Shown in pieces: positions 1 to 23,494 of a DNA stretch of 64,000 bases. Every line of letters starts with the position of its first letter. Within the stretch, counting starts at the first letter, position 1. The stretch is from Candidatus Poribacteria bacterium (GTDB lineage Bacteria; Poribacteria; WGA-4E; PCPOR2b). Location: the NCBI GenBank assembly GCA_965208675.1, contig OZ242351.1:4736001-4800000 (forward strand). Direction: 5' to 3'. The position numbers and the translations under genes are program-made. The notes below the pieces were generated by a model. That model was not told the origin of the DNA. It searched no databases and saw only the letters and a program-made list of their open reading frames with translations.

Positions 1-398
1 TGGAGCAGTTTTAGTCCTGTGGCGATTCGGAAAAGCGAGATAATTTGGTCACTGTTTTTTCGTTCCCGCTCCGCAATCATCACGTCCTGATTTTCTGCGA
101 TGCGGCGATTGAGATTGTCGTATTCCGTCCGAATTTTCGTATCTGCGGGATTCAACTGAATCGCACGTCCGAGAAACCGGTGGGCGGCAAACACTTCGTT
201 CCAAGTTTCGTAGATTTTAGCGAGATGGAAGTTGGCTTGGGCGCGGATATCGGGTTCAGCCTCGACGGACAAAATGGTCTCCCACAACTGGATGGCTTTC
301 GGAATGTCGTCCTGTTTTTCCAAGGATGGGGCGTATTCAACAAATTTGTTAATGTCCGAGCGAACCTGATTCTGTGTGGGTAAAACGTGATTTTGCAT
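1..398 (-). CDS. TPR-like helical repeat protein, 3'-truncated by the window edge
   Basis: Not in the ORF track. Manual translation from ATG at 398 is open to position 1: MQNHVLPTQ...KAIQLWETILSVE...ANFHLAKIYETW...LGRAIQLNPADTKIR, a TPR-like 'A.F.LA..Y' and 'AI.LNP' pattern. Confidence 0.65.
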   Translation of the reverse strand, partial: MQNHVLPTQNQVRSDINKFVEYAPSLEKQDDIPKAIQLWETILSVEAEPDIRAQANFHLAKIYETWNEVFAAHRFLGRAIQLNPADTKIRTEYDNLNRRIAENQDVMIAERERKNSDQIISLFRIATGLKLL

Positions 399-481
399 GG
401 GGGTGGGGGGGGGTGATTAAATTTTGTTATGATTAATGATGTTTTTTAAAGCAAAAACTTCGCATGTAAATCCGATTTGAA

Positions 482-650
482 AGTGGTGTGAAACACCACT
501 ACTAGAGAAGACTATCGCCTTCGCTGTTCGCTCAGTTGATCCCTCCTTAGTAAGGAGGGGAATGATGTATGTGTTTGATTCTCATTTAACCACTCGTCTG
601 TGTGCGTCCTAATAATCCTCCCCCTTGCTAAGGGGGAGCTAGAGGGGGTC
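482..650. repeat. Cluster of REP-like palindromes
   Basis: Hairpins AGTGGTGT-GAA-ACACCACT (482-500, with CTAC at 499-502, i.e. GTAG on the minus strand), CCCTCCTTA-G-TAAGGAGGG (541-559) and CTCCCCCTT-GCT-AAGGGGGAG (618-638). Confidence 0.75.
505..543 (+). repeat. Dispersed ~35-bp repeat, copy 1
   Basis: GAGAAGACTATCGCCTTCGCTGTTCGCTCAGTTGATCCC; matches copies at 674-708, 1182-1220 and 32693-32718. Confidence 0.85.
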
Positions 651-673
651 GGTGGTGTATGGTTGGGAATCGG

Positions 674-708
674 GAAGACTATCGCCATCGCTATTCGCTC
701 AGTTGATC
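674..708 (+). repeat. Dispersed ~35-bp repeat, copy 2
   Basis: GAAGACTATCGCCATCGCTATTCGCTCAGTTGATC. Confidence 0.85.
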
Positions 709-769
709 GCTCTGCCCTACCTACAGGGTACTATTCGGTCGGTCAATCTCTCTACCCTACCCGGAGTGA

Positions 770-979
770 CTACGGGCTTCGGAATCCCTTTATTATCCAT
801 AGAACTGCTCTGAAGACGATGTGCCCGACGACGAATGTAACGCCAAAGAATACAGTTGCCACCCAGATGCCTTCACTGAACGCTTCTAGAACAGTAAAAA
901 CAGCCAATATCAAAACACCAAGGACAATAGAGAAAAACAACCAAAGGCGGTTGAATCCCTTCTGCCAATTTATTCCCAT
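770..979 (-). CDS. Small two-TM membrane protein (69 aa)
   Basis: Two hydrophobic stretches; strong GGAGG RBS just upstream of the ATG. Confidence 0.7.
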   Translation of the reverse strand: MGINWQKGFNRLWLFFSIVLGVLILAVFTVLEAFSEGIWVATVFFGVTFVVGHIVFRAVLWIIKGFRSP

Positions 980-1042
980 TTAAACACCTCCTATTATCAC
1001 GTATGTGTCACCGACGACATGGTGTTGGTTCTAAGCTAGTGT

Positions 1043-1145
1043 GTAGGTTGGGTTGAGCGGTGTTAACGAGCCAACGCCCGTATGCCGCGTGAATGTACGT
1101 GTTTTGATTGCCTTCAAATTTTGGGCTGATGAAGCGTAACGCAAC
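1043..1145 (+). repeat. GTAG-type REP-like element
   Basis: GTAGGTTGGGTTGAGCG at 1043, with an imperfect complementary GCGTAACGCAAC near 1134-1145. Confidence 0.4.
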
Positions 1146-1181
1146 GTATTTTGTCGAATTCGCAATGTAATGTTGCAAATC

Positions 1182-1261
1182 GAGAAGACTATCGCCTTCG
1201 CTATTCGCTCAGTTGATCCCTTGGCAAGGGGGAGAACGTACTTGGTACGGGGGAGAATGTA
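1182..1261 (+). repeat. Dispersed ~35-bp repeat copy 3, fused to a hairpin arm duplicated as a 21-nt tandem
   Basis: GAGAAGACTATCGCCTTCGCTATTCGCTCAGTTGATCCC, then CTTGGCAAGGGGGAGAACGTA / CTTGGTACGGGGGAGAATGTA. Confidence 0.8.
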
Positions 1262-1283
1262 AGATGCTCCATCAACCTGCGAG

Positions 1284-1496
1284 CTACGAGACTTCTTCAG
1301 AACTCCAATTTTCCGTCTCGGTTGCGAAGGTGTCGGCGAGGTCATCGGCGATGGTGTCCTTAATGAGACTGATGAGATCTTCGCGGAATTTCATCCAATC
1401 TTGTCCGCGCCTCGTGAAACGATGGGGACCGTCAATTTCGACAAACATGGTGTCATTAGGTTGAGACAGCGATTCAAAGTAACGAGTGACTTTCAA
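1284..1496 (-). CDS. Small acidic hypothetical protein (~70 aa)
   Basis: Track ORF 1284..1583. Start revised to TTG at 1496 because AGGAGG lies 9 nt upstream and this removes the overlap with the HAD gene. Confidence 0.65.
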   Translation of the reverse strand: MKVTRYFESLSQPNDTMFVEIDGPHRFTRRGQDWMKFREDLISLIKDTIADDLADTFATETENWSSEEVS

Positions 1497-1543
1497 TACG
1501 TTTTTCCTCCTGATAACAGTTTCCAGATTATGAAACGGCGGAT

Positions 1544-2245
1544 TTATGGATCGGGATTTAGCGTCCAATTTTGGATTTCCCAATTTGACTCAAGCGCAAT
1601 TCGCCGAAATTTCTTGCCGGGATTGACTGCAACGGGATGATTTACGCATTGCAGCATCGGCAGATCTGCACTGCTATCGCCGTATGCGTAGCTAGCAGTG
1701 AGATCGATGCCGTGATGTTCGGCGAATTCTGTGACGGCGCGAGCCTTTTCCTCTCCGCTCAATGGTGGTGTTGTGAGTTCACCTGTGAATTTTCCGCCCT
1801 GCTCATGTATCTGCACGGTCAAAGCATGGTCGCATTCGAGAAAATCGGCGAGCGGCTGGATGATAAAATTGAGAGAACCGCTCACGAGAACGACCAAATC
1901 GCCGCGGCTTCGGTGTTCACTTATGCGATTTAATGCGGCGGGAAAGATTTTCGGGCGGAGATGCGTATCGAATTTTTCGTATGAATGATGTCGAAGCGTC
2001 TCAACATCCAGACCTTTGTAGTTTCGGTAGAACACACGATTGAATTTTGTGCGGCTGGCTTTATCAAGAATGAGGTAGTAAATCACTTTAGGGGCGAATT
2101 GAATCATCCAGAACGGACGCAGCACGGGAGGAAGCAGCGGAACGCGAAGCCAAACATAGTAGTGTACAATGGTGCTCTTGACTATGGTGCCATCGACATC
2201 GAAGAATGCAGCCGTTTTTCGTTCAGGCGGCTGAGTTTTTGACAT
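1544..2245 (-). CDS. HAD-IB family hydrolase (phosphoserine/phospholipid phosphatase-like)
   Basis: Motif I FFDVDGT, motif II VSGS, K in GEEKA, motif IV GDSSAD. Confidence 0.9.
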   Translation of the reverse strand: MSKTQPPERKTAAFFDVDGTIVKSTIVHYYVWLRVPLLPPVLRPFWMIQFAPKVIYYLILDKASRTKFNRVFYRNYKGLDVETLRHHSYEKFDTHLRPKIFPAALNRISEHRSRGDLVVLVSGSLNFIIQPLADFLECDHALTVQIHEQGGKFTGELTTPPLSGEEKARAVTEFAEHHGIDLTASYAYGDSSADLPMLQCVNHPVAVNPGKKFRRIALESNWEIQNWTLNPDP

Positions 2246-2292
2246 CGATTTTGAACTCCAATTTGAAATGTCCTAGGTAACAAACGGAATAC

Positions 2293-5200
2293 TTACACGA
2301 TATGCGCGCTTTCCCGCAACAGTTCGATTTTTTCTCGCACCTCATCAACAAAGGCTCTATAGACTTCATGATTGATTGCCGCGCCGTCCTCGGAAGCACG
2401 GAGGGTCATTGGCTCACCGAAAACCACCTTAATTTGCTTCCTGCGCGGCAAGTTTTTGCCTTTGGGCAGCGCTTGGTATGCGCCGTCAATATATGTTGGG
2501 ACAACCGGCGCCCCGGTTTCGTAGGCGAGCAATCCCAGCCCGGCTTTGAATGGTTGGAGTTCGCCTGTGACTGATCGTGTACCTTCCGGATAGATGAGTA
2601 AGCAGCGGTTTTCAAGCATAATTTCGTGAGAAGTCCGTACATCCTGCAGAAACTGCGAAAAATTGTCTTTCCGTTCGAAAGGCAGAAACTTAAAAAGTTT
2701 GCCAAAGAACCATGCTTTGAAGCGGGTATTGAAGAAGTAGTCGCGTGCGGCTAGAATTTTGATGCCCCTCGCTGATTTACCGAGCGCAGTAACTACGGCG
2801 CCGGTATCAAGGTGACTTGTGTGATTAGCGACAAAGATGCACGGTTTGCCGTCCGGGATGTGTGCTTTACCGTAAGTCTTGATGGAGAAATACCCGTGAT
2901 AGGCGATTCGCATGCCGAGCCGCAAAAGGCGTGTTTTGATTGATAAGTGCGGCAGACCCATGTCAGTGTAGGTCGGCGGTTCAGCGCGGGCAGAAATCGA
3001 CACACTGCTCTCAACCATGTGAATTTCAGGTTGGACTTGCAGCGTTTTGACGGATTGAATTACGTCGCCAACGGTGCGAATTTGCATGACCATCTCGTCA
3101 GGTATGGGATGTTGGATTTTGGCTTCCAGCAATAGCAATAGTTCAACTCGCGCAAGGGAATCCAATCCGAGATCGGCGTCCAAGTGATCTTCCAAACGTA
3201 TCTTTTCAAGCGGCAGCCGTGACAGGCGGCTCAATTCAGAAGCAATGGCACCTTCCCAACCGCCAGAAATCCAATCCGGTTGCGCTGAGGAAGCCGTTTC
3301 ATCAGACGCGTCGTCGGCGCTCTCTCCCGTTGAATTATCGTCCTGTGTCACGCCAGACAGCCGATCCAATAGCATCTCTTTGACGCGCCGGCGGTGAATC
3401 TCAAAGGTTGGTAGTTTGGGCAGTTCCGATTCCCAAAAATGCAATTTGTGAAGATGTTGATAGCTGGGGAGATCGCGCGCGCAGTTTTGAAGATGTTGGC
3501 GAATTGTAGATTCAACCTCCGCCGGATTGGGTTTACCCCTTCGATTGGGAACTATGACAGCGTGAACTTCCTCCCCGTGCGAATCGCCGATGTTCACACC
3601 GACAACACAGATTTCTGCGATGTTTGGGCTGTGCTGATACAGCTCTTCAAGTTCGACTGGATATATATTTTTCCCCGCGCTCGATACGATGACATCCTTG
3701 AGACGTCCGGTGATATAGAGATAACCATCTGCATCAATGTACCCGAGATCCCCTGTATGCAAGGTTCCACTCCGCATCATGTGTTCGGTTGCCCCCGGGT
3801 TCCGATAGTAACCTGCCATTAGGCTAGGACCTTGCGCTACGATTTCGCCAATCCCGTCTGGGTTGGGATGATGGATTTGAACTTGTGTGCCTTGTACGGG
3901 AACGCCGACAGCCGCCCGCTTACTTTTGTGATGAGGATTCACGGTAAGCACGGGAGCCGTTTCGGTCAGCCCGTAGCCCTGATAAATTGTTAACCCGAAA
4001 CGCTGGTATGCGTCATAAATTTCGTTGGACAACGCCGCACCGCCGCTCACTAGGACACGCATGTTGCCACCTAAGGCGGCGTGTAACGCTTCAATCGCCG
4101 CTCGGTCAGGCGGGGCGTCCTCCGCGGCGGTAGATTTTAAAACGTAGCGCATGATAGTGTCATAAATTAACTTAAACATTCGCGGCACGCCTATGACGAC
4201 AGTTGTCTGTGTTTCCTGCATGGTATCCAGGACCATGTTCGGCTTAAGCGTGTTGGGATAAGTGACCGTGGCACCGCCGTAAATTGACATCAGAAAACAG
4301 CAGGTAAACTCCAGCGCGTGATGCAATGGCAATATCGACAAGAACTGGTCTGTATCGTGGGGCGGCAGCGCGTGTGCAACAGCGTGGACGTTAGCAATGA
4401 AATTCTTGTGCGAGAGCATTACCCCTTTCGCCTCGACCGTGGTGCCCGCAGTGAAGATTATTGAGGCGATTGTGTCTGGTTGGATATCCACTTTGGGGAA
4501 GCCGTTGGTTACGTCGGACGCATTACTCTCTTCGATTGACGCAGATTGGGGTTCCGGCGAATGGTCGAACTCAAACGGTTTGCAGAAACGAACGATGTTC
4601 AAGAGGTCTACCGTAGGTGTGCCGTCGTCGGACTGGGTTAGTGCACGGTGTAATTGCCCAGCCAGTGAATCTGAGGTTAGAATGGCTTTCGCCTCGGTAA
4701 ACTTTGCGAGTGCAAAGATTTCGCGCTCCGAGGTTTGCCGGTCGACTGGAACAACCGTGATGCCAATGTGTACGGCGCCCAAATAAGCGATAGCCCATTC
4801 CGGGCAGTTCTCAGCAAAGAGAATCAGGCGGTCGCCTGGACGGTAGCCTCGATTCCAGAGAGAACAAGCGATTTGCCGGGAAATGTCATAGAGTTGGCGG
4901 TAGGAATACCGTACCCAATTGTCTCCGGCTTTCATCTGAAGCGCGGTTTTATTCGGATTGGATTTGACACGTTCGGCAATCAGGTCTGGAATGGTACGAT
5001 AAGGCAATTGCGAATTACCGCCGGCACCGTCAACTCGGCTGCTGACCCCCTCTTCACTTTGTTCCGGCACGGGATTTTTTCCATTGCCGCTTTCGAGTTT
5101 GAGGATGTGACGCTTGATGCCGGGAATATGAACCTCCTGAAGATAGTGCCTCCAGTTAAATTTTAAGACATCAAAGTTGAACCGCCGTTGATCGGACGGG

Positions 5201-6690
5201 TCGAGAGCACGAAACAGCGCTTCAGTTTTACCGGTTTCAAACTCAAAACTCAAGCGGGTGTATGTGCCGTAGAGCCGAATATAATTCTGTAAGCCTTCAA
5301 TTGCATTCTGCATCACGCCAATGCGGCGGTTTGCAGCCGCCGCCGATTTCAGCGGCAACCGGCTGAGGATGGAACCGCCCAAACCTAGCATGAGATATTT
5401 AAGTCGTAGTTGACGTTGGAATTTCTTGAGGCTAGGATATTTCCACACAGGCACAGGAATCGGCTTCCCTTTGTCAAACATGGGGGATTGGACGAAGTAG
5501 TCGTGGGTTGCTGTTACGATACCGTGGAAGGTCAACGGGTTCCGAGATCCAGTAGCGACATGATAGACCTCGATTCCGCGTTTGCGGTATGTCTGGAACG
5601 AAATCGCCAGGATAGCATTTACAACGAAGTCAACGGGAATAATGTCGGTAATGGCTTCCGGTTTTCCGGGAAAGTCCGGCAGACGTCCTTTCGCAAACCC
5701 GATAATAATCGGGTCCGCCATACGGAAACCGTCAAGCCAACCGGGTTCCGGTTCCTCAAGGCTACTCTCGATTATTGAGGGGCGGACAATAGCGATCGGT
5801 AAATCGCCTTTTACCGCGGCAATCATCTGTTCGCCGAGTGATTTTGTGTAAGTGTACGTATCGTTCCATCCACGCGACTTTGCCCGATTTAAGCCCTCTT
5901 CTACCAACCGGGCTTCAATCCACCTATTCCGAACCGTTTCGATCTGTGCTTCGAGTTTCTGACTCTTCCTTTTCCCTCCTCCCAACTGGCGTTGGGCTTG
6001 TTTGCGGAATTGAACCGTCCGCGAGGAATGATGTGCTTCGGTGCGCACCTTCTCGCTCAAGTGGAAAATGTCCTCAATTTCCGTGTCGAGGTTGCTAGGC
6101 ATGGTTTCACCGGTTTGTTCGCGATGTCCGTCGGCGTAAGACTCATAGGGCTGATGGAGCGCTTCTGCAACCTTCCCAGGACGCATTCCACAGACGTAAG
6201 CCGTCGATACGTGGATTAACACGGCGTCATTGCAACTCTTAGCGAACTCTACGGCATATTTTGCACCGAGCGTGTTGCTTCTTAGGGACGCATCAATGGC
6301 GGGATCGAATTTTACAAGGCCTCCGCTGTTGATGAATACCCTCACTTCACTCGTCAGGCGTTCATAATCGCTATCCGATAGACCGAGCCGTTTTAACGAG
6401 AGGTCGCCGTCTACTGCGGAAACTTTTTCACGAATCCATTCGTCAAAGCTTGAACCGTGAATACCCTTCAATTTGGTGAAGACGCTGGACGTGAATATTT
6501 CTTCCTGTAGGCGAGTTTCGGCTGAATAGACGTTGCCGTTGGGTTCTGCACGGGCGCGGATTAGCAGGTAAATCTTATGGATGTCGGGAATGTCCGTAAG
6601 AATTTTGGCAACCAACGGCTTTCCGAGGAAACCTGTGGCGCCCGTGATCAGGATTACTTTATCGCGGAAAAATTCTGGAATTGTGTTCAT
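2293..6690 (-). CDS. Multidomain fatty acyl reductase (SDR/male-sterility) + AMP-binding + ACP + PlsC acyltransferase; ElbD-like
   Basis: ITGATGFLGK, VSTAYV, YTYTK (reductase); QGYGLTET, HTGDLG, ITGRLKD (ANL fold); DLGLDSL (ACP Ser); NHTSHLD and YPEGTRS (acyltransferase). Confidence 0.9.
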   Translation of the reverse strand: MNTIPEFFRDKVILITGATGFLGKPLVAKILTDIPDIHKIYLLIRARAEPNGNVYSAETRLQEEIFTSSVFTKLKGIHGSSFDEWIREKVSAVDGDLSLKRLGLSDSDYERLTSEVRVFINSGGLVKFDPAIDASLRSNTLGAKYAVEFAKSCNDAVLIHVSTAYVCGMRPGKVAEALHQPYESYADGHREQTGETMPSNLDTEIEDIFHLSEKVRTEAHHSSRTVQFRKQAQRQLGGGKRKSQKLEAQIETVRNRWIEARLVEEGLNRAKSRGWNDTYTYTKSLGEQMIAAVKGDLPIAIVRPSIIESSLEEPEPGWLDGFRMADPIIIGFAKGRLPDFPGKPEAITDIIPVDFVVNAILAISFQTYRKRGIEVYHVATGSRNPLTFHGIVTATHDYFVQSPMFDKGKPIPVPVWKYPSLKKFQRQLRLKYLMLGLGGSILSRLPLKSAAAANRRIGVMQNAIEGLQNYIRLYGTYTRLSFEFETGKTEALFRALDPSDQRRFNFDVLKFNWRHYLQEVHIPGIKRHILKLESGNGKNPVPEQSEEGVSSRVDGAGGNSQLPYRTIPDLIAERVKSNPNKTALQMKAGDNWVRYSYRQLYDISRQIACSLWNRGYRPGDRLILFAENCPEWAIAYLGAVHIGITVVPVDRQTSEREIFALAKFTEAKAILTSDSLAGQLHRALTQSDDGTPTVDLLNIVRFCKPFEFDHSPEPQSASIEESNASDVTNGFPKVDIQPDTIASIIFTAGTTVEAKGVMLSHKNFIANVHAVAHALPPHDTDQFLSILPLHHALEFTCCFLMSIYGGATVTYPNTLKPNMVLDTMQETQTTVVIGVPRMFKLIYDTIMRYVLKSTAAEDAPPDRAAIEALHAALGGNMRVLVSGGAALSNEIYDAYQRFGLTIYQGYGLTETAPVLTVNPHHKSKRAAVGVPVQGTQVQIHHPNPDGIGEIVAQGPSLMAGYYRNPGATEHMMRSGTLHTGDLGYIDADGYLYITGRLKDVIVSSAGKNIYPVELEELYQHSPNIAEICVVGVNIGDSHGEEVHAVIVPNRRGKPNPAEVESTIRQHLQNCARDLPSYQHLHKLHFWESELPKLPTFEIHRRRVKEMLLDRLSGVTQDDNSTGESADDASDETASSAQPDWISGGWEGAIASELSRLSRLPLEKIRLEDHLDADLGLDSLARVELLLLLEAKIQHPIPDEMVMQIRTVGDVIQSVKTLQVQPEIHMVESSVSISARAEPPTYTDMGLPHLSIKTRLLRLGMRIAYHGYFSIKTYGKAHIPDGKPCIFVANHTSHLDTGAVVTALGKSARGIKILAARDYFFNTRFKAWFFGKLFKFLPFERKDNFSQFLQDVRTSHEIMLENRCLLIYPEGTRSVTGELQPFKAGLGLLAYETGAPVVPTYIDGAYQALPKGKNLPRRKQIKVVFGEPMTLRASEDGAAINHEVYRAFVDEVREKIELLRESAHIV

Positions 6691-6800
6691 TTCGCATTGG
6701 TGTTTTCAAAAAAAGATAGTCCATCGACCAACGTCACGGAAAGGAGAGGTGCGCGACAGCATAGATGAGTGACGTTCGGTGAGTTACACGCGTTAGCTTT

Positions 6801-6830
6801 AGTATAAAGGAAAAAGTGGGTTTGTGTCAA
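6801..6830 (-). promoter_or_regulatory. Sigma70-type promoter for the ElbD-like/HAD operon
   Basis: Minus strand TTGACA-18 nt-TATACT. Confidence 0.6.
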
Positions 6831-7132
6831 TGCAAAACCCAAACCTCAGAGACATGCTATGAAAATGCGGAAAATGTCAAGAAATACGCAAGCGATTTGA
6901 GTCTCCACGGGTAGCATGAATCTTCTTACTATTCGACATTTCAAATTAAGGAAGAACCGTAATTTTTCCAGGGCTTTGCGTGATAGCGAAAGGCACACAT
7001 TGCATCCGCAAATTATATCATAGAATTGCGCGATGAACCTATGCTATAATAACAGCCTTAATCGCCTAGAGGTTGTGGAAACGGTGAATGCTCTTTATGG
7101 AGTTTTGAAAACCTACCGCAAGTTCAGGAAAT

Positions 7133-7501
7133 ATGGATAGACTTGTAATCAAGGGTGTTCGGTTTCACGGATATCACGGGGTATCGGAATCAGAACGCCA
7201 GGTTGGCCAGGAGTATGAAATTGACGCGGAATTGACGTGTGATTTGTCCCTGGCGGGAGCGACCGATGAACTTGCCCACACAATTGACTATGGAGCAGTC
7301 GTAAGTCTGATTGTTGAAATTGGCACGCGGCAATCATTTCAACTCATTGAGGCGCTCGCCGAAACCGTTGCGTCAGCGATTTTGGATGAGTTTCCAGTCG
7401 ATGAAGTGCAGATACACGCCAAAAAGCTGTCGCCCCCGATTGAACATCAACTTAACTATGCCGGCGTTAGGATTCGGCGAAAGAGGAACTCTCAAGTGTG
7501 A
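7133..7501 (+). CDS. folB: Dihydroneopterin aldolase
   Basis: FHGYHGV..SERQVGQ, TIDYG, LIEALAE motifs; 122 aa. Confidence 0.95.
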   Translation: MDRLVIKGVRFHGYHGVSESERQVGQEYEIDAELTCDLSLAGATDELAHTIDYGAVVSLIVEIGTRQSFQLIEALAETVASAILDEFPVDEVQIHAKKLSPPIEHQLNYAGVRIRRKRNSQV

Positions 7502-7530
7502 AGGGATGAAGGAGGTTTTTTTTACTCTAC

Positions 7531-7748
7531 CCCCTCTCGCTCCCCCTTGTTAAGGGGGAGGACAATTGTGGCGACTTGTTAAAGAGGAAGAAACTTGCGG
7601 CGACTGTTTAAGAGGTTGGATAATCGGGAAAATTTGCTAATGGGGAAAACGTCGGTGGTGACTTCTCAAAGGGAAGGACATATGTGGTGACTTGGTAAAT
7701 GTTGGGTAGAGGTGTCAGCTTGGCAAGAGGGAAAAATTTTGAGAGCGA
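7531..7748 (+). repeat. REP-like hairpin followed by seven degenerate ~29-nt tandem units
   Basis: CTCCCCCTT-GTT-AAGGGGGAG hairpin; units start at 7546, 7575, 7604, 7633, 7662, 7691 and 7719. Confidence 0.7.
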
Positions 7749-7918
7749 TCCAAAAAACCCGACGTTTGTACCGGTCTTATTATCTTCCGAACGGGGACAG
7801 CGGACGATCAAGGTTTCCATGAAAATCTGCTTGAAAATTCAATACCGATCAAGTATTATTTTGGCGTTCTAAAAACATTGACGCACGCCGAAACGGATTT
7901 GTTAGGAGAAATTAAGCT

Positions 7919-9919
7919 ATGATTGTTTTTCTGCGGGAAAAATTTATTGCACAGATATTTATGTGGATTATTGCGATTGTTTTTGTGATTGGTTCTTTTT
8001 TACTGTATACCACGATGTCGGGCAATTCGAGTGCTGGGCCCGGTGATGATGACGTTGTCCTCAAGATTAATGGCGCGAAGGTGCGGCGCGGTGAATTTGA
8101 ACGGCTCGTTAGTAACCACCTGCAGAGACAACAACAGCAGGGACAAGCTGGTTTAACAACTGAACGCGATGAGATTGAACAGCAGGTGATTGATCAGATA
8201 ATTCAAGAGCAGATTTATCTGAACGGCGCCCAGTTTAGCGATGCTGAAATTGAGGATGGTATTCGCAGGAATTATTCGCACTTGTTGGGGGCATACAACG
8301 CGTCTAACCCGCAAGAGCGGAACTACATCCGCCAATTTGTCCGTTTGCAAATGAGTTTTGAAGCCTTGCGCAACCAGTTTGAGGGGCTTAACTTAATCAC
8401 GGATACAGAGATTGAAAATGAGTATCGTCTCCAGAATGACAAGGCGAAGTTGAAATACATCCAATTCCAACATACGTCATATACCAGCGCTGTAAACGTT
8501 GAAGACGCCGACATCGCCTCGTATTTTGAAGAACACAAAGATGATTATAAAATTGACGATCGGATTGATTTACGGGTCATCAAGCTTGATCCAAGGGATT
8601 TTGTGACAGACGAATCGGTACGGGCGTACTATGATGAACGTAAAGGTGAGTTTACAACGCCTGAAGCGGTTAAGGCGCGCCATATTCTCGCAAAATTTCC
8701 GGATAGCGCATCGGATGAACAGAAAGCTGAAGTCAAAGCCAGAGCGGAAGAACTCCTTGAAAAAGTGAAGACTGAAGTCGAAGCGGGGACGGATTTTGCC
8801 GACCTGGCGAAGGAGCATTCGGAAGACGCCGGTTCGGCTCCATTAGGAGGGGCGTTGAGGGGACGCCACCCGAAACTACCGCCGGGAGATTATTTTGCGC
8901 GCGGCGATATGGTTGCCCCATTTGAAAAGGCGTGTTTTGAGGAATTGCAGCCGGGTGAGGTGAGCGGCCTTGTTGAGTCCCGATTCGGGTATCACATTAT
9001 CAAATTGGAAGAGAGAAAACCGGAGGAGATTCAGACGTTCGATGCTGCGGAGCGCGAGATTCGTGATAAGTTAATCCAAATTGATGGTGTCGATGAAGCG
9101 AAGACTGTCGCGGAATTTCTGCTTTTCGACGTGGAATATCAAGATTTTGAAGCGGCCGCCAAAGGGGAAAGATATAGTGACTTATCAGTTTTGGTGCAAG
9201 ACACGGGATGGTTTTCTCAAGATGCTACCAACATCCCTCAAGTTGGATCGAAATGGACGTACCGCGGTTTAATTGACCAGGTGTTCAACATGGAAGTGGG
9301 CGTAAGCGATATCATTGAAGCGAAGAAGGGGAACGGGGACATAGAGGCTTATTTTGTCGCGCGGGTGCTTGAGAAAAAGGTTGGCGGCGTCCCCGCGCTT
9401 GAGGACACCTGGACAGCGAGCCCGAAGCGTACCGTTAAAGAACAGGTGGTTGAGGACATAAAAAAAGAGAGAGCACAACAGATGGCGCGCGAGGACGCGC
9501 AGAGATTGTTCGGTCTTCGAAGCGGCGGCGAATCGCTCGAAGATCTACTTAAAAAGTATGAGGCGCCGCAAGGGGTAACCAAGAAAGAACAGTCGGTAGA
9601 AGAGAGCAGATTGTTTGCCATCTCTCCAACCAGCGATTTTGTTTCAGGGCTAGGCGCGTCTCGGGAGGTTATGTTTGCCGCATTTAATATGGACATTGAT
9701 GCCGTTGGCGGGCCTTTTGCGGGCAATGACAGCGAATACCTTATTCAACTTGTTGAGCGTCAGGAACCAGATATGGAAAAATTTGAAAACGATCCCGCCG
9801 AGAAGACCAAAATCCGCCGATCATTGCTACAATCGAAGAAGAGCCAGGTATTCAATAGCTGGTACAATACGCTGAAAAAACAGGCGCAGATAACGGATAA
9901 CCGTTCTGAATCGAGTTAA
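7919..9919 (+). CDS. PpiD/SurA-like membrane-anchored peptidyl-prolyl isomerase
   Basis: N-terminal TM, SurA-N-like region, parvulin motifs KARHIL, FADLAKEHSED, MVAPFEKACF, SRFGYHII. Confidence 0.85.
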   Translation: MIVFLREKFIAQIFMWIIAIVFVIGSFLLYTTMSGNSSAGPGDDDVVLKINGAKVRRGEFERLVSNHLQRQQQQGQAGLTTERDEIEQQVIDQIIQEQIYLNGAQFSDAEIEDGIRRNYSHLLGAYNASNPQERNYIRQFVRLQMSFEALRNQFEGLNLITDTEIENEYRLQNDKAKLKYIQFQHTSYTSAVNVEDADIASYFEEHKDDYKIDDRIDLRVIKLDPRDFVTDESVRAYYDERKGEFTTPEAVKARHILAKFPDSASDEQKAEVKARAEELLEKVKTEVEAGTDFADLAKEHSEDAGSAPLGGALRGRHPKLPPGDYFARGDMVAPFEKACFEELQPGEVSGLVESRFGYHIIKLEERKPEEIQTFDAAEREIRDKLIQIDGVDEAKTVAEFLLFDVEYQDFEAAAKGERYSDLSVLVQDTGWFSQDATNIPQVGSKWTYRGLIDQVFNMEVGVSDIIEAKKGNGDIEAYFVARVLEKKVGGVPALEDTWTASPKRTVKEQVVEDIKKERAQQMAREDAQRLFGLRSGGESLEDLLKKYEAPQGVTKKEQSVEESRLFAISPTSDFVSGLGASREVMFAAFNMDIDAVGGPFAGNDSEYLIQLVERQEPDMEKFENDPAEKTKIRRSLLQSKKSQVFNSWYNTLKKQAQITDNRSESS

Positions 9920-9978
9920 TTATCTAGTCGATAAAGGTTGATGACTTTCTGTCAGTTTGGAAGACTGAAAACTTTAAA

Positions 9979-10836
9979 ATGCCTGCCGCTACCACGAGCG
10001 ATAATCTCTTCATGAGTCGCCCCTTGACAGCCCCCGGTGGTTTCACTGCGGGCATTGAGGGGCCCGCTTGCGACGACGAAGGCAACCTGTATGCCGTCAA
10101 CTATGCCCGTCAAGGTACAATCGGGAAAGTGACTCCCGAAGGTGAGTGCAGCGTATTCCTCGAATTGCCGAACGGCAGCATCGGCAACGGCATTCGTTTT
10201 AATCGCGCCGGTTTCATGTTTATCGCTGATTATGTGAACCACAATATCCTCAAAGTCGACATGGACACGCGAGAAGTCAGCGTCCATGCACATTCGCTGG
10301 CGATGAACCAACCGAATGACCTTGCCATCGGTGCGAACGACATTATCTACGCCAGCGATCCGAACTGGGCGGACTCCACAGGACGGATTTGGCGGATTGG
10401 TCCGGATGGTGCGGTTTCCTGTCTTGAATCCGGAATGGGAACTACCAATGGGATTGAGGTCAGTGCTGATGAGCGGATGTTATACGTCAATGAAAGCGAC
10501 CAACGCAACATTTGGGCATATGACCTCTCTTCAGATGGCGAAATTAGTCATAAACGCCTCTTTATCCAGTTCACGGATTATGGAATGGACGGTATGCGCT
10601 GCGATATTCGGGGCAATTTATATGTAACGCGCTGGGGGAAAGGCACGGTTGCCAAAATTTCTCCACAGGGCGAAGTGCTTCTGGAAATCGAGCTCGCGGG
10701 GAAAAATTGCACGAATCTGGCATTCGGCGGCGCCGACGGCTGTTTGTGTTACGTCACTGTCGCGGATCGGGGGAACGTCGAGTATTTCCGCACTGACCTT
10801 CCCGGGAGGAGTTGGTGCCTCAGGAGAAGGGATTAG
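9979..10836 (+). CDS. SMP-30/gluconolactonase family protein
   Basis: IEGPA, NQPND, TNGIEVS, MDGMRCD, TNLAFGG motifs. Confidence 0.9.
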   Translation: MPAATTSDNLFMSRPLTAPGGFTAGIEGPACDDEGNLYAVNYARQGTIGKVTPEGECSVFLELPNGSIGNGIRFNRAGFMFIADYVNHNILKVDMDTREVSVHAHSLAMNQPNDLAIGANDIIYASDPNWADSTGRIWRIGPDGAVSCLESGMGTTNGIEVSADERMLYVNESDQRNIWAYDLSSDGEISHKRLFIQFTDYGMDGMRCDIRGNLYVTRWGKGTVAKISPQGEVLLEIELAGKNCTNLAFGGADGCLCYVTVADRGNVEYFRTDLPGRSWCLRRRD

Positions 10837-10865
10837 ACAGCCGTCGTATTGGTTGACGCATAATA

Positions 10866-12092
10866 ATGCAAGCCATTCAATACAGGAAAAGTGTGCCGCG
10901 CTATTTGATTGCGAGATTCTTGGGGAAGCGGTGGAACTGGCTTTATACGTCATGGCTGTCGTGCGCTCGTTTGGTCAATATTGAAAGTCCGCAACTCCCC
11001 TCGCCCGATTGGGTAAAAATTAGAACGCGCTTGAGCGGTATTTGCGGCTCTGATCTCGCAACAATCACTGCCAAGGGGAGCCCATATTTTTCGCCGTTTA
11101 CCTCCTGCCCGTTCGTGTTTGGCCACGAAGTTGCGGGAGAAATTGCGGAGATTGGACCGCAGGTTGAAGGGTATGATGTTGGCGACCGCGTCGTCATCGA
11201 ACCGGTTTTGCCGTGCGAGATTAGGGGCATCGTACAAAAATGCCGTCAATGCCAACAAGGCCATTATGCCGGTTGCGAAAATGTTGCACGGGGTGAAATT
11301 TCCGCGGGCGTTCAAACCGGGTATTGCCGGGACACCGGCGGCGGGTGGAGTAAGTATTTTGCGGCACACAAGAATCAGTTACATCGTGTGCCGGATGATG
11401 TCCCTGACGAAATCGCCGTGTTGATTGAACCGTTCGCGTGTGCGTTACATGGGGTGCTGCAAGCTAACCTGAAAGACGCGGATGAAATTCTGATACTTGG
11501 CGCGGGTACGATTGGGCTGCTCACGCTCGCGGCGATTCGGCATCTCGGAAGAGGGAACCGAATCTACGTCATCGGGAAGCACCAGCATCAGCAGAAACTC
11601 GCCCGTGAACTCGGCGCCGATGTGGTTTTTGCCCCTAGTAAAGCGACATACCGTGATTTTTGCCAATTGACTCAGGCAGAAAGTTATCAGCCGGAACTTG
11701 GCAAACCGGTTATTCTTGGCGGTGTGGATGTCACCTTCGATTGTGTGGCGTCCGCCGACACAATCGACGATTCACTCCGCATGACCCGTTCGGGCGGGCA
11801 AGTGATGCTTGTCGGTATGCCCGCTATTCCGAAAAACATTGATTGGACGGCGCTCTGGCACAAGGCGCTGAATGTTCGGGGTGTGTACGCCTATGGCTTG
11901 GAAAGCTACGAAGGCAAGCGGATTCGCACCTTTTCGTTAGGAATTCAACTTTTGCAACAGATGGGAAGCGAACTGTTACCGTTAGTCGGGGGGTTATTTT
12001 CTTTGGATAATTATCGGAAAGCCGTTCAAACCGCGCTGCACACCGGAAAATTCGGTTCCGTGAAAACAGTCTTCGATCTGCGTTCATCGTAA
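10866..12092 (+). CDS. Zinc-binding (MDR) alcohol dehydrogenase-like protein
   Basis: GICGSD, GHE, structural Cys cluster, EPFACALH, GAGTIG. Confidence 0.9.
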   Translation: MQAIQYRKSVPRYLIARFLGKRWNWLYTSWLSCARLVNIESPQLPSPDWVKIRTRLSGICGSDLATITAKGSPYFSPFTSCPFVFGHEVAGEIAEIGPQVEGYDVGDRVVIEPVLPCEIRGIVQKCRQCQQGHYAGCENVARGEISAGVQTGYCRDTGGGWSKYFAAHKNQLHRVPDDVPDEIAVLIEPFACALHGVLQANLKDADEILILGAGTIGLLTLAAIRHLGRGNRIYVIGKHQHQQKLARELGADVVFAPSKATYRDFCQLTQAESYQPELGKPVILGGVDVTFDCVASADTIDDSLRMTRSGGQVMLVGMPAIPKNIDWTALWHKALNVRGVYAYGLESYEGKRIRTFSLGIQLLQQMGSELLPLVGGLFSLDNYRKAVQTALHTGKFGSVKTVFDLRSS

Positions 12093-12132
12093 AGAGCAAT
12101 TTCTAAGGAATTGGGGGCAGAAGGGTAAATTT

Positions 12133-13731
12133 ATGGGAAACGAAAATGACAGAAGTGACCTTATCACACACGTAGAGGACCCCGACCAAAAATATCTGTT
12201 CCACTATGGGGATGGTTTCCTCTATGACCGCCTTCCGAAGGGAACTCGCGTAATCTATCCGCCGAAACCTCTCACGCCGATTGCTGATGACACAACTGCA
12301 ATTAAAAACGCTATTGAGAATCCCTTGGGTGCGCCGCCGCTGTCAGCCCAGCTTCGCCCCGGCATGAAGGTCACGATTGCGTTCGACGATCTTTCGCTGC
12401 CGCTGCCGCCGATGGAGACGCCGGATGTGCGGCAACGCATCATTGAAATCGTCCTTGAGGAACTCGCTGACGCCGGCATTGACGATATTCATTTGATAGC
12501 TGCATTGGGTCTTCACAGGCGAATGACGCCCGCTGAACTCAAGCGGTGCGTTGGCGCAAGGGTTTTTAATCAGTTCCATCCAGATCGATTATATAATCAC
12601 GATGCTGAGGACAATGATAACCTGTCTTTCCTTGGAAAAACGGAGATGGGAGAAGAGGTCGAAATCAATCGACGGATTGCGGAATCCGACCTCTTGATCT
12701 ATGTAAATATTAACCTCGTTGCCATGGATGGCGGTTACAAATCGTTGCCGACCGGCATTTGCAGTTATCGAAGCATTCGCCACCACCACAACACGCACAC
12801 GTTGATGCATTCTCTGTCGTATATGCACCCTCCAAAATCTGCATTGCATCACTCCTGCCAACGGATTTGGAAGGTGATAACGGAACATATCAACTTCTTT
12901 ACGATTGAAACCACGCTTAACAGCGCTACCTTCCCGAAACTGTTTCCTTACCTCGAAAAGCGGGAGAAGAACTTCAATCTGTTCGATGGACTCAATTTCC
13001 ATATCAATAAAACTAGCTTGGATATTATGCCGCGTGCTATGGCTCGCGCCGTGATGCAGAGCATGCGCGCGCCTTACGGGTTAACCGGGGTGCACGCGGG
13101 GCACACCGAACCGGTGCACGAGAAGACGCTTGAAAATGTCTATAAACAGCAGTTGGTGCCTGTCAAAGGCCAGGCGGATATTTTGGTTACGGGCGTTCCG
13201 TATATTGGCCCTTACAACGTCGATTCAATCATGAATCCAATTCTGGTCATGTGCATGACGCTAGGGTACGCCTTTAATTTTTACCATAACCTGCCTTTGA
13301 TACGCCAAGGGGGCGCGGCGATTTTCACTCACCCTGTCGATTACGATTTTCATAAAATCCATCATCCGTCATACATTGACTTTTTCGAAGAGGTCCTTAC
13401 AGAGACTACTGAACCTGCCGAAATCGAAAAGCGGTACGAAGAGTCGTTTGCCAATAATCCTAGGTACATTGACCTCTACCGAAACTCCTACGCCTATCAC
13501 GGTGTACATCCCTTTTACATGTGGTATTGGGGCTGTTATGCACTTGACTATTTGGGGAAGGTGATATTCGTCAAACCGAGGAGCGTTGAAGCGGTACGCC
13601 GTATGGGTTTTGACTACGCGAAAAACCTCACGGAAGCGATCGAAATGGCGCAGAGTTTCGTAGGTGGTTCAACGCCGGAGATTACCTACTATCACTACCC
13701 GCCAATTTTCATGTGCGATGTATCAGCGTAG
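12133..13731 (+). CDS. LarA-like (DUF2088, lactate racemase domain) protein
   Basis: AIENPLG...L, IAFDD, ALGLHRRMT..EL, NHDAED, GGYKS motifs. Confidence 0.8.
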   Translation: MGNENDRSDLITHVEDPDQKYLFHYGDGFLYDRLPKGTRVIYPPKPLTPIADDTTAIKNAIENPLGAPPLSAQLRPGMKVTIAFDDLSLPLPPMETPDVRQRIIEIVLEELADAGIDDIHLIAALGLHRRMTPAELKRCVGARVFNQFHPDRLYNHDAEDNDNLSFLGKTEMGEEVEINRRIAESDLLIYVNINLVAMDGGYKSLPTGICSYRSIRHHHNTHTLMHSLSYMHPPKSALHHSCQRIWKVITEHINFFTIETTLNSATFPKLFPYLEKREKNFNLFDGLNFHINKTSLDIMPRAMARAVMQSMRAPYGLTGVHAGHTEPVHEKTLENVYKQQLVPVKGQADILVTGVPYIGPYNVDSIMNPILVMCMTLGYAFNFYHNLPLIRQGGAAIFTHPVDYDFHKIHHPSYIDFFEEVLTETTEPAEIEKRYEESFANNPRYIDLYRNSYAYHGVHPFYMWYWGCYALDYLGKVIFVKPRSVEAVRRMGFDYAKNLTEAIEMAQSFVGGSTPEITYYHYPPIFMCDVSA

Positions 13732-13747
13732 CGGAGAACACCCGGTT

Positions 13748-16700
13748 ATGGAGATCATAAAACCCGTCCAACAAGAAACTGCCGCTATGACTAAGGGAAA
13801 AATATTTCGCGTTAGCCTCCAGATTTTCTTGGCGTGCGCGCTCTTTTCTTTTCACGCATTGACTTGGGCTGAGAAGGCGACGAGGCCTTCGGACGTCATT
13901 GAAACCGCCATCCGCCACCAAAGCCTCGGACTTGCTTACCTGGAAGAGTCTCAACCGAGCAAAGCCATTTTGGAATTTGAGGCTTTAGTGGAGATAATTC
14001 CCCAAGAACCGATTGGTTACGGAAATCTTGCAGTTGCGTATCTTCGCCTGCAAAAAAGCGATGAAGCCGAAACGTGGGTGACACGCGGCCTCGAAATTGC
14101 GCCGATGGACAGCCAGTTGCGTTTTATCCTCGCAGAGGTTAATCAATGGCAGGGTAAGACAGAGGAGATGGTCGCGGAAATTCAGGAAGCTGTAAAGCTC
14201 GCACCGGAAAACTTGGAGATGCGGTATAAGCTGGCGCGCCACTATTTGGGTCAACGGAACGACCCACAAGCGAATTTACAGGCGATTGACCACTTATGGA
14301 TACTGCGGGAGGGCGCGCCAACCAATATCGTGGTGCTACTCCAGTTGGCGCAAGCGCTTCTGCAACGAGAACAGACTGAAGAGGCGAAACGGATTTGTAC
14401 GGAATTACATGCGCTGTTGTGGGATGTCGATGAAAAGTTCCTCAAGTTCTTAAAACAGGGATTGCTCCTGCTCGACCAAGGTGACATCAAGGGGGCATCT
14501 CGTAACGTTCGGATATTTAGCAACGTCCAGCGAAACACCCCCCGCTACCAACAGGGAATTGGCGAACTTGTTACTGACATTATTGGACACCCGATTGAGG
14601 AATTCAGCCCCGGTTTCAAATCTCGCGTTGTTGCTAAACTTAGCCCTGCGGTTGATATGCGCTACGTCGATGAAACGCAGGGACTCGGACTTAGCAATTT
14701 GTCAGGCAAAAGATCGAGGGTCATACTGTCAGATACGGACAGCGACGGCGATTTAGACCTATTTGCGCTCTACGCGAGCAGCGGCGAGGAAACAACCGGC
14801 AGTTTTTTCCTAAACCACGATGGGAAGTTTGTAGCTCATCCACCCAGCGAATACGGTGATGCCGCCGCGTTCGTCGACATTGACAAGGACGGCGACCAAG
14901 ATTTGTACGTGCTAGTGGAGAAACGGGAGCGGTTACTCGTGAATTCGGGCGACGCTTTTGAGCTTCAATCGCCGCCGAGAGGTGGTTCAGCGGTGCTATT
15001 TGTCGATTACGATCACGACGGCGACCTGGACAGGATGACAGTCAGCGATGGCGAAACCAGCATGCAGCGGAATAACGGTGACGGCTCATTCACCGATGTG
15101 ACGCTTCAGACCTTTTTGCCTCCTGAGACGCAGGGCGGTCTTGACGCCGCGTTCGGCGATTTTGATGATGACGGCGATGTTGATATATTTACCGTGAATG
15201 GTGCGAGCGGAACCACCCTATACACCAATCTGCGGCAGGGCAAGCTACGCGCGGTGACCGATGGACTGGGAATTTCACAGGATGTGTTTTTTACATCGGT
15301 TGCCGTGGGCGATTATGATAATGACGGCGATCTCGACCTCTTTTTGGCGACGGACGGTGATACCCCTCATCAGCTCTATCTCAACAGGGGGAACGCCGCG
15401 TTTGTTCACGATAACCGATCGATGGCGGGATTATCTTCGACAAATGGTGTGCGCGGATGGGATGCGCATTTCCTGGATTTTGACAACGACGGTTTTTTGG
15501 ATCTTTGGGTTGTCGGCCAACGAGAGGGCGGAGATGGAATTTTGCTATTTCGGAATGACGGCACCGCAAAATTTGACGATGTTTCAAGACTGTTGCCGGA
15601 CGGTGCCGCCGGTGGGATTGACGGAGCGGTGGGCGACTACGACAACGACGGCGATTTAGATTTGGTTTTGATTGACGGTGAGGGACAAGTTTTCGCGTTA
15701 CGAAATGATGGCGGCAACAAGAACGGATGGCTGCAAGTTCGGCTAGAGGGAGTCACTGCGGGCAATAATAAGGTCAATATCGACGGTATCGCTTCGAGGG
15801 TTGAACTCAAGGCTGGCGACCTCTACCAGATGAGGAATGTCACCGATCCGATTACGCATTTCGGGCTAGGAGCTGCCGAGCAAGGTGATGTGTTGCGTGT
15901 GGTCTGGACGAACGGCGTTCCCCAGAACCTTATACATCCGAAGGCGAATCAGCGCATTGTTGAGAAACAGATTCTGAAAGGCTCTTGTCCGTTTTTGTAC
16001 GTTTATGACGGGGAGAAATATCAATTTGTGACAGATCTTTTGTGGCGCAGCCCGCTCGGGATGGCAACGCCGATGGGGTTCCTCGCCCCCGCCCAGACTG
16101 CAGATTACGTCAAAATATCGGGCGACCTCATGAAGCCCAAATCCGGCGTCTATTCGATACAAGTCACAGAAGAACTCTGGGAGACTGTCTATGTTGATGA
16201 GGTCAAGCTAATCGTCGTGGACCACCCAGACGGGACGCAGATATTCGTCGATGAAAAATACAGCCCACCGCCGTTTCCGGACTTCAAAATCTATGCAACT
16301 CAAGAGATTCATCGGCCGCGCGCTGCGTTCGATTCCCATGGTAACGATGTCGCCGATGCACTGATGGAATTCGACTACCGTTATGCTGTCGAACATGAAC
16401 CCGGTAAGTTTCAAGGCGTGGTTGAACCGCATTCTGTTATACTCGACCTCGGTGATGTTCCAAATGACCAGCTGTTAACGTTGTTTCTCTCCGGTTGGAT
16501 ATTTCCAACAGACACGAGTATCAATGTTTCACTCTCGCAAAATCCGTCGCTCAGCCCGAGATTCCCTTATTTACAAGTGCTAAACAGTGAGGGCGAATGG
16601 CAAACGGTGATAGACGTGATTGGGATACCGGCAGGGAAGAACAAAACAATCGCCGTAGATTTGACGGGAATATTCCTTTCTGAAGATCGGCGTGTGAAGA

Positions 16701-19662: not shown

Positions 19663-19691
19663 ATTTAGAAAAAGCCATTCGGCGTTTACAA

Positions 19692-23469: not shown

Positions 23470-23494
23470 TGTTTTCCAATTCTCCTTTGCACTT

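Follow-up and report, generated by a model that had tools for sequence, protein, structure and literature searches.

A probable rearranged, dehydrogenase-type variant of the myxobacterial elb cluster in a poribacterial chromosome, and the LarA family membership of ElbC

A stretch of 64,000 nucleotides from the closed 4.89 Mb chromosome of a Candidatus Poribacteria bacterium (GenBank assembly GCA_965208675.1, contig OZ242351.1, positions 4,736,001 to 4,800,000; hereafter the window) carries genes for an ElbD-like four-domain protein, a HAD-IB phosphatase, a Zn-dependent medium-chain dehydrogenase (Zn-ADH, or ADH) and a LarA homolog (LarAH). Comparison with related loci gives good support to the view that these four genes belong to one conserved lipid module, and the window probably contains the elb cluster of myxobacteria in a rearranged, dehydrogenase-type form that makes an ether lipid. 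The product and the role proposed below for LarAH are inferences. ElbD and ElbB have already been published for Poribacteria, in a preprint on sponge symbionts, both poribacterial and acidobacterial, that carry elb-like clusters (Loureiro et al. 2026, 10.64898/2026.06.23.733905). To a poribacterial cluster given in the text of that preprint as elbD plus elbB only, the window adds an elbC-type gene and a dehydrogenase.

Organisation of the locus and its ElbD-like protein

All seven genes named by the original prediction were found at the positions given there when the gene calls were checked by open reading frame (ORF) listing and by Pfam and NCBIfam profile searches. On the minus strand, the gene of the ElbD-like protein (P0001, 1465 aa; 2293–6690) is followed 47 bp downstream by that of the HAD-IB phosphatase (1544–2245), the ElbB counterpart, which scores 127.8 bits on PF12710 and 151.5 bits on TIGR01490 (cutoff 98.3). 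On the plus strand lie the Zn-ADH gene (10866–12092; ADH_N and ADH_zinc_N domains) and the gene of the 532-aa LarAH (12133–13731), the ElbC counterpart. LarAH scores 150.5 bits on Lar_N and 833 bits on NF052592, the model of the LarAH14/15/16 family, and exceeds the curated cutoff of 740. As predicted, folB (7133–7501), a ppiD-like rotamase gene (7919–9919) and an SMP-30/SGL, gluconolactonase-like gene (9979–10836), all on the plus strand, separate the two pairs. These three are intervening genes and not members of the module. The distance from the ElbD start (6690) to the ADH start (10866) is 4.2 kb, close to the 4 kb first noted; LarAH lies 5.4 kb from ElbD, on the opposite strand and beyond three unrelated genes, so that the elbC-type gene does not stand next to elbD here. 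The same layout, with the ElbD–HAD pair divergent from ADH–LarAH and folB, ppiD and SMP-30 between them, is that of the window's genus. A promoter-like site upstream of ElbD (6801–6830, minus strand; TTGACA-18-TATACT, 11/12 matches) is weak evidence: promoter and terminator counts in a scan of the region were no higher than in shuffled sequence (16 promoter-type sites against 13.8), and the operon boundaries are therefore not fixed.

From the N-terminus, P0001 consists of a reductase (FAR; NAD_binding_4 at aa 15–360 and Sterile at aa 460–531, nt about 5098–6654), an acyl-AMP ligase (AMP-binding at aa 572–962 and its C part at aa 1013–1092, nt about 3415–4977), an acyl carrier protein (ACP; PP-binding at aa 1149–1212, nt about 3055–3246) and a PlsC-type acyltransferase (AT; aa 1270–1401, nt about 2488–2883), all encoded on the minus strand. 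Since five Pfam domains are matched at E-values of 1e-8 to 1e-77, the 1465-aa frame is not a chance feature. Residues G17/G20, Y279/K283, S1178, H1290/D1295 and E1369-G1370-T1371-R1372 are invariant across 11 ElbD homologs from at least six phyla and likewise in seven poribacterial homologs. They include what we take to be a GxxGxxG motif at 17–23, the ACP serine Ser1178, an HX4D motif at 1290–1295 and an EGTR motif at 1369–1372. Judged from these alignments, the catalytic motifs of all four domains are intact. Full-length identity to the 11 multi-phylum homologs is 29–43%, and 29–32% to those from metagenome-assembled genomes of Polyangia/Myxococcota (L069, L074 and L075, none of them M. xanthus).

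The order of the domains is that described for Myxococcus xanthus ElbD, namely an N-terminal FAR1-like domain, an acyl-CoA synthetase (ACS), an ACP and an AGPAT-like acyltransferase (PMC9131029), and the architecture had been read correctly as the ElbD type. For the M. xanthus protein, ACS and ACP activities have been confirmed in vitro, and iso-15:0 aldehyde is elbD-dependent; neither AT activity nor fatty alcohols were detected (PMC9131029). An Aas-type acyl-ACP synthetase/acyltransferase, which the original prediction had set against ElbD, was rejected: P0001 has an N-terminal FAR domain and reaches only 224 bits on PRK08633 (cutoff 1221) and 153 bits on PRK06814 (cutoff 1349), and the AMP-ACP-AT relatives that have no FAR domain, found in the ElbD survey described below, have none of the partner genes. 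In several Poribacteria (G051, G057, G075, G097, G113) two ORFs take the place of ElbD, one for FAR of about 536–560 aa and one for AMP-ACP-AT of about 870–915 aa, in agreement with the reductase/adenylation split in the preprint (10.64898/2026.06.23.733905).

Conservation of the module and its two variants

Does the ADH–LarAH pair belong with ElbD and HAD? In the Poribacteria synteny set, which comprises 21 full-length ElbD-related loci, 20 of them poribacterial, with partners sought within 10 kb, every one of the 21 has the HAD gene immediately after that of the ElbD homolog; the folB-to-LarAH block stands beside ElbD only in three close relatives (82–94% ElbD identity). Elsewhere, as anticipated, the four genes co-occur, and they do so as a single operon. 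In an unclassified bacterium (L027), ElbD (9998–14347), HAD (14348–15034), ADH (15166–16398), LarAH (16407–18023) and a lipid kinase of the DAGK/YegS type (18016–18906) form one co-directional operon, with identities to the window proteins of 38% for ElbD, 45% for HAD, 53% for ADH and 55% for LarAH. In a class-level poribacterial relative (G104, locus L139), FAR, AMP-ACP-AT, HAD, ADH, LarAH and DAGK follow one another in one row, ADH and LarAH being 56% and 60% identical to those of the window. The order in both contiguous operons is ElbD, HAD, ADH, LarAH, lipid kinase.

A first alignment-based ElbD scan, which used Poribacteria-specific patterns, returned only Poribacteria, L027 and Bacteroidales matches confined to the AMP-binding domain, and was of no use for wide synteny. 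A survey of LarAH in species-representative genomes gave at least 592 relatives. The best 80, which are 43–66% identical to the window LarAH and come from at least eight phyla (including Actinomycetota, Chloroflexota, Planctomycetota, Acidobacteriota, Myxococcota, Armatimonadota and Cyanobacteria), were retained with flanks of up to 10 kb, and partners were called by tblastn (query coverage at least 50%, E at most 1e-8, distance at most 8 kb). Near these 80 LarAH genes, HAD was found in 69 loci, FAR in 61, ADH in 48, AT in 44, DAGK in 18 and AMP-ligase in 17. The partners share the strand of LarAH almost always (HAD 68/69, ADH 48/48), and in all 48 loci with ADH this gene precedes LarAH. Only three loci are without any partner, and all three are short or cut. 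Restricted to the 50 loci flanked on each side by 5 kb or more, the counts are 48 for HAD, 44 for FAR, 33 for ADH, 30 for AT and 14 for DAGK, with at least one of HAD, FAR, AT and DAGK in 50 of 50. The association of HAD-IB and DUF2088/LarA genes with such reductases, which the original prediction had put forward, is thereby borne out as a strong one, and M. xanthus elbC itself encodes a LarA homolog. Label-free clustering of 916 ORFs around the 80 LarAH loci yielded lipid genes only as recurrent neighbours: FAR, Zn-ADH, PlsC-type acyltransferase, HAD, YegS/DAGK lipid kinase, NAD epimerase and PlsY, the FAR often sharing a single ORF of about 800 aa with HAD.

In Actinomycetota the module takes a compact form. 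FAR and HAD-IB are joined in one ORF of about 760–890 aa in 27 plus-strand candidates (L086–L130), and in one of them (L124:6434-8830) Pfam finds NAD_binding_4 and HAD in a single translation. These fusion loci have no AMP-ligase or ACP domains, and a separate PlsC-type acyltransferase follows LarAH. They share with the window the LarAH clade, the HAD, FAR and AT parts and mostly the same ADH, but the window has a full ElbD and a split layout.

The converse survey started from a diverse ElbD alignment, with selection blind to LarAH. One general AMP-ligase motif was among its patterns, and four-domain proteins made up 12 of its 79 loci; all 12 are new, one of them cut by a contig end. LarAH stands immediately upstream of ElbD in 10 of these 12. 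The usual order is HAD, LarAH, ElbD, NAD-epimerase, with an ElbE-like epimerase downstream in 8 of the 10, and is the published elbB-C-D-E order.

Within the phylum, 121 sampled Poribacteria genomes were profiled, with ElbD scored at E of at most 1e-100; the genomes are mutually related, so that the counts are not independent and do not amount to a statistical test. ElbD is present in 116 of them. A full-length LarAH-type gene is found in 111 of the 116 ElbD-positive genomes and is absent from four of the five ElbD-negative ones; nine of the 121 have a LarAH above the NF052592 cutoff, and another 103 carry a full-length type of about 500–525 bits. The distance from ElbD to LarAH is about 5.5 kb in the window's genus (four genomes), and 26–38 kb in one family; the two are contiguous in G104, and far apart or on separate contigs in the other Poribacteria compared. 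In G031 an ADH ortholog (67% identity) adjoins a divergent LarAH-like gene.

This divergent, full-length LarAH-like type of 103 of the 121 Poribacteria (e.g. L131–L136) is 36–38% identical to the window LarAH and keeps D85, H128, K203 and H218/H219, position 192 being Asp and position 194 Ile or Val. For the most part it lies away from lipid genes, the exceptions being the adjoining ADH in G031 and an ADH 2.7 kb off in G114. The same type occurs in G121 and G122, the non-poribacterial genomes whose ElbD-HAD-ADH loci have no adjoining LarAH.

Compared with the M. xanthus elb operon, the window has the same four ElbD domains in the same order, by the published description, and a HAD phosphatase like ElbB, and its LarA-like protein falls in the same LarAH14/15/16 family as ElbC. 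In M. xanthus, ElbB is described as a HAD-like phosphohydrolase, and ElbA and ElbE as NAD-dependent epimerases/dehydratases (PMC9131029). The window differs in that its genes are split between two divergent units with 4 kb between them, and in that genes of the ElbA/ElbE type are missing, with a Zn-dehydrogenase there instead; Pfam and NCBIfam found no NAD-dependent epimerase/dehydratase in window positions 1–20000, and the nearest Epimerase-family gene is at 50798–51796. The elb-like character claimed at the outset accordingly stands for ElbD, HAD and the LarA-like protein, which match elbD, elbB and elbC. It does not extend to the Zn-dehydrogenase, which is not part of the canonical elb operon and replaces, in a second form of the cluster, the NAD epimerases of the ElbA/E type.

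The two variants are separated in a LarAH tree of 97 rows (FastTree, with SH-like supports only). One clade, linked to the epimerase, has 25 rows from Myxococcota and Acidobacteriota, with the epimerase near 18 and ADH near none (support 99). The other, linked to ADH, has 66 rows, with ADH near 51 and the epimerase in two cyanobacteria (support 89). The third group, six poribacterial proteins of about 510 bits, branches off at a distance. Unlike the myxobacterial protein, the window LarAH belongs to the ADH-linked clade; it is sister to that of G061 (79% identity) within a 22-row set that also holds Chloroflexota, Planctomycetota, Armatimonadota, Acidobacteriota, the class-level poribacterial relative and L027. 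Because ADH and an ElbE-type epimerase occur together in none of the 97 rows, the pattern fits a replacement of one redox enzyme by the other in the same role.

The best PDB matches of the Zn-ADH are L-threonine, butanediol, xylitol and sorbitol dehydrogenases and galactitol-1-phosphate 5-dehydrogenase. Aligned to 5kia, it displays what we presume to be the GHE motif and the Cys-rich structural-zinc loop. The enzyme is predicted to be a secondary-alcohol/ketone oxidoreductase for small polyol-type substrates, a type that would be compatible with the reduction of a ketone of the dihydroxyacetone phosphate (DHAP) type.

The module thus reaches beyond myxobacteria, to Actinomycetota, Chloroflexota, Planctomycetota, Acidobacteriota, Armatimonadota, Cyanobacteria and Poribacteria, and this spread bears on which bacteria make the alkyl glycerol ethers of sponges and sediments. 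The sponge-symbiont families of Loureiro et al. share with the window the phylum, the elbD and elbB core and the occurrence of split elbD variants. For families 5–10, the text of the preprint gives elbD and elbB homologs only and mentions LarA nowhere, although its figures or supplements may show such genes (10.64898/2026.06.23.733905); the window differs from them in having an elbC-type gene and an ADH partner 4 kb from ElbD.

The LarA-like protein, ElbC and the nickel-pincer cofactor

The M. xanthus genes elbABCDE are MXAN_1531 to MXAN_1527, and the figure legend that lists them gives functions for all products but ElbC (PMC13012113), a protein "of unknown function" in PMC9131029. From the order of the locus tags, elbC is therefore MXAN_1529. 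This protein is listed in Group 15 of the LarA homologs, all 12 members of which are myxobacterial (Desguin 2020, Dataset S2, PMC7583248), and M. xanthus ElbC is a LarA homolog. In the same work groups 14 and 15 are labelled "Unknown function", and their genomic contexts are given as follows: COG0204 (PlsC), COG0560 (SerB-like) and COG1063 at 88% each and COG3320 at 50% for group 14 (eight members, including the Frankia LarAH14), and COG0560 at 100% and COG0451 at 150% for group 15 (12 members). The next group, whose four members equal group 16 in size, has COG0204 and COG0560 at 100% each (PMC7583248). Our literature searches found no paper with both "ElbD" and "racemase", none in which ElbC or "ether lipid" occurs together with DUF2088 or "lactate racemase", and none that connects ElbC, the LarA family and the Zn-dehydrogenase variant. 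Two literatures therefore list the same protein, unconnected.

The nearest solved relatives of the window LarAH are the single-His LarA enzymes 9q2u (E = 3.7e-36, moderate similarity) and 9q3j. In the alignment to LarA_Sp, H128 corresponds to His115, the retained catalytic His, K203 to Lys195, which forms the covalent link to the nickel-pincer nucleotide (NPN), and N194 to Asn185, which in LarA_Sp stands in place of the second catalytic His (residue roles from section 2.5 of PMC12611868). The NPN-binding residues of LarA are Asp72, Lys184 and His200 (PMC11770544), and D85/D86, K203 and H218/H219 are found at these places in the window LarAH. The second catalytic His, His174 of LarA, is missing, with N194 at that place; the published alignment has a gap there for groups 14 and 15, hydrophobic residues at the position of LarA Arg75 and Asn at that of Lys298 (PMC7583248). 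Across the family D85, H128, R129, K203 and H219 are invariant in 97 of 97 rows and H218 in 96; in the two main clades N192 is invariant (91/91) and N194 is kept in 83 of 91. Judged by these residues, the window LarAH keeps the cofactor site but not the racemase machinery. LarA groups 14–16, LarA_Sp and LarA_Bw share its Lar_N fold and lack, as it does, the second catalytic His; the first one is kept, as are the Asp, the His that binds Ni and the Lys that tethers NPN. For LarA_Sp and LarA_Bw (group 17 type) the neighbours are glycolytic or sugar genes (PMC12611868), whereas those of the window's LarAH family are lipid genes.

Group 16 itself (Frankia alni, Frankia sp., Microlunatus, Propionibacterium) has lost the NPN-linking Lys in four of four members and the catalytic His in three of four (PMC7583248). 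These proteins retain the PlsC and HAD context and look like degenerate paralogs of the group 14 enzyme.

The genome has matches to LarB (NF033503, 283.6 bits, cutoff 175), LarC (PF01969, 479.8 bits, cutoff 22.1) and LarE (TIGR00268, 319.3 bits, cutoff 150), by which a pathway for the NPN cofactor is predicted to be encoded. A second LarA-like gene, of canonical length (435-aa frame, 85 bits on NF052592), could also be a client of LarB, LarC and LarE. This gene and an unlinked YegS/DAGK-type lipid kinase gene are at G000:C1:1976452-1976985 and G000:C1:1735988-1736833, respectively; the kinase is 34% identical to that at the end of the G104 operon and scores 159.6 bits on TIGR00147 (cutoff 118.65).

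A protein named "LarAH15" from Phytophthora is a D-gluconate 2-epimerase with a GntE-type pocket (PMC11770544). Because the 2020 group 15 is wholly myxobacterial, this is most likely a collision of names, and the shared name should not be taken as a function assignment for ElbC-type proteins. The identity of the window LarAH as such an epimerase (GntE) was also considered and rejected, since the LarAH genes of the 80 surveyed loci have lipid and not sugar-acid neighbours and LarAH14 was negative for this activity.

Proposed pathway, alternatives and other features of the window

In the pathway that we propose, the ACS domain would load a fatty acid onto the ACP domain and the FAR domain would reduce the acyl-ACP to an aldehyde or alcohol. 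The ether link to a glycerol-phosphate or DHAP backbone would then be formed in a step needing LarAH and the dehydrogenase. LarAH may transiently oxidize the C2-OH by passing a hydride to NPN, without inversion, and the dehydrogenase (or ElbE) would reduce the keto intermediate. The AT domain would acylate sn-2, the HAD phosphatase would take off the phosphate, and the YegS-type kinase, where present, may set the phosphorylation state of the product. A more specific idea, which we put forward tentatively and at low confidence, is that the ether-forming step of the elb pathway, independent of AGPS, is the work of ElbC-type LarA homologs acting as nickel-pincer enzymes. A hydride would be borrowed from the glycerol C2-OH, the sn-1 fatty aldehyde or acyl group would become an alkyl ether via a keto (DHAP-like) intermediate, and the Zn-dehydrogenase, or ElbE in myxobacteria, would reduce that intermediate. 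If this were true, aerobic bacterial ether-lipid synthesis would depend on nickel. Reviews of the ElbD route describe most of its steps as uncharacterised and assign elbC no function. Joining ElbC to LarA gives a concrete candidate for the formation of the ether bond, and a nickel-pincer enzyme becomes a candidate core component of bacterial ether-lipid synthesis.

The AGPS route of eukaryotes and myxobacteria (FAR, GNPAT, AGPS, alkyl-DHAP reductase) resembles the module in its FAR and its GNPAT/AGPAT-like acyltransferase, and the Zn-dehydrogenase could act as the alkyl-DHAP reductase; it differs in that the module has no AGPS. The genome encodes five FAD-oxidase_C proteins, for which NCBIfam matches are only of the GlcD/GlcE/YdiJ type. 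One of them (463 aa; G000:C1:472211-473602, L232:7212-8603) is AGPS-like by PDB search, with alkyl-DHAP synthases as best matches (2uuu, E = 8e-61; 4bby, 3e-55) and D-lactate dehydrogenases no better than 1e-32. The genes that come after it are those of a class II aldolase and an FGGY sugar kinase and not lipid genes, and with such neighbours it was not counted as a second ether route.

Several observations weigh against an ether-lipid module of the kind described. Synteny across Poribacteria is mixed: neither ADH nor LarAH is found within 10 kb of ElbD in 17 of the 20 poribacterial loci (ElbD identity 55–60%). In G061 the LarAH ortholog lies 2.65 Mb from ElbD with no ADH alongside. Two loci from Acidobacteriota (L147) and Phycisphaerae (L148) consist of ElbD, HAD, ADH and DAGK; LarAH is missing from the surrounding 10 kb, and a full-length LarAH-like gene (510–524 bits) is found elsewhere in both genomes. 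In the window, ppiD, SMP-30, ADH and LarAH run co-directionally with gaps of 29–59 bp, which places ADH–LarAH outside the ElbD operon. On the biochemical side, the FAR and AT activities of M. xanthus ElbD have not been demonstrated in vitro, the elb disruptions described in PMC9131029 are of elbD and elbE and none is of elbC, and the Frankia LarAH14 was inactive on all seven substrates tried, as far as the published account goes. According to the preprint, ether lipid synthesis has not been recorded in Poribacteria (10.64898/2026.06.23.733905), and no ether lipids were reported as detected in Pontiella isolates with ElbD homologs.

Part of these points would be met if the module were real but its product were not a glycerol ether lipid: fatty alcohols, wax, alkyl-diol lipids or some other glycerolipid that has been reduced or modified. 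LarAH and ADH would then act on a head group or polyol backbone. Such a product would agree with the lack of reported ether lipids in Poribacteria and Pontiella, with the resemblance of the ADH to polyol and threonine dehydrogenases and with an inositol-3-phosphate synthase gene 5 kb downstream of LarAH. The failure to detect fatty alcohols with M. xanthus ElbD (PMC9131029) was also counted in its favour. We nevertheless consider a non-ether product unlikely: disruption of elbD or elbE in M. xanthus lowers alkyl and vinyl ether lipids (PMC9131029), elbB, elbC and elbD have their homologs or positional counterparts in the window, and monoalkyl glycerol ethers are reported from sponge holobionts that host these bacteria.

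It is also conceivable that ElbD and HAD work alone here, with ADH and LarAH as the leftover of an ancestral operon and an independent function. The 17 poribacterial loci with only ElbD and HAD within 10 kb speak for this, as do the published poribacterial gene cluster families, described in the preprint text with elbD and elbB homologs only (10.64898/2026.06.23.733905), and the isolated LarAH of G061. Three findings make it highly unlikely: the full-length LarAH-type gene somewhere in nearly all ElbD-positive Poribacteria, the invariance of the catalytic and cofactor residues of LarAH, and the G031 ADH ortholog beside the divergent LarAH-like gene.

That SMP-30, Zn-dehydrogenase and LarAH form a sugar-acid unit (dehydrogenase, lactonase, gluconate/mannonate 2-epimerase) lying near ElbD by accident is most improbable and was rejected. 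In its favour, the three genes share one strand and are only 29 and 40 bp apart, the ADH matches Glu_dehyd_C weakly, the Phytophthora LarAH15 is a gluconate epimerase (PMC11770544) and a carbohydrate role was proposed for LarA_Sp and LarA_Bw by their authors (PMC12611868). Against it, no SMP-30/SGL gene was found by tblastn within 8 kb of LarAH at any of the 80 loci, including the 50 well-flanked ones, all of which have lipid partners, LarAH14 showed no gluconate 2-epimerase activity in the published assays, the Phytophthora name is probably a collision, and the LarAH family is without the second catalytic His and, by Dataset S2 of Desguin, the Arg75 and Lys298 residues of LarA.

Other genes of the window may or may not be related to lipids. 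The inositol-3-phosphate synthase gene (18592–19662, plus strand) matches PF01658 and scores 559 bits on TIGR03450, below the cutoff of 638; it may relate to the inositol-linked lipids predicted for Poribacteria (10.64898/2026.06.23.733905), and is preceded by a 350-aa ORF (17405–18457) with no Pfam or NCBIfam match. At 49711–52823 (plus strand), a membrane protein of the LPG_synthase_TM family, an NAD-dependent epimerase/dehydratase (partial NAD_binding_4) and a 3-hydroxyisobutyrate-dehydrogenase-like gene may be another lipid-modifying unit. Two ORFs of 426–444 aa with N-terminal sigma-70 regions 2 and 4 (22189–26225 and 27595–29844, minus strand) flank an LVIVD-repeat protein, near a 749-aa WD40-repeat protein and PD40 beta-propeller proteins. 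PhyH (phytanoyl-CoA dioxygenase) paralogs are encoded at 32847–34058 (minus), 38045–38965 (plus) and 41322–42245 (plus), and three more lie by the AGPS-like locus (L232, 10836–14481); some of the PhyH genes adjoin those of Laminin_G_3 (concanavalin-like) proteins.

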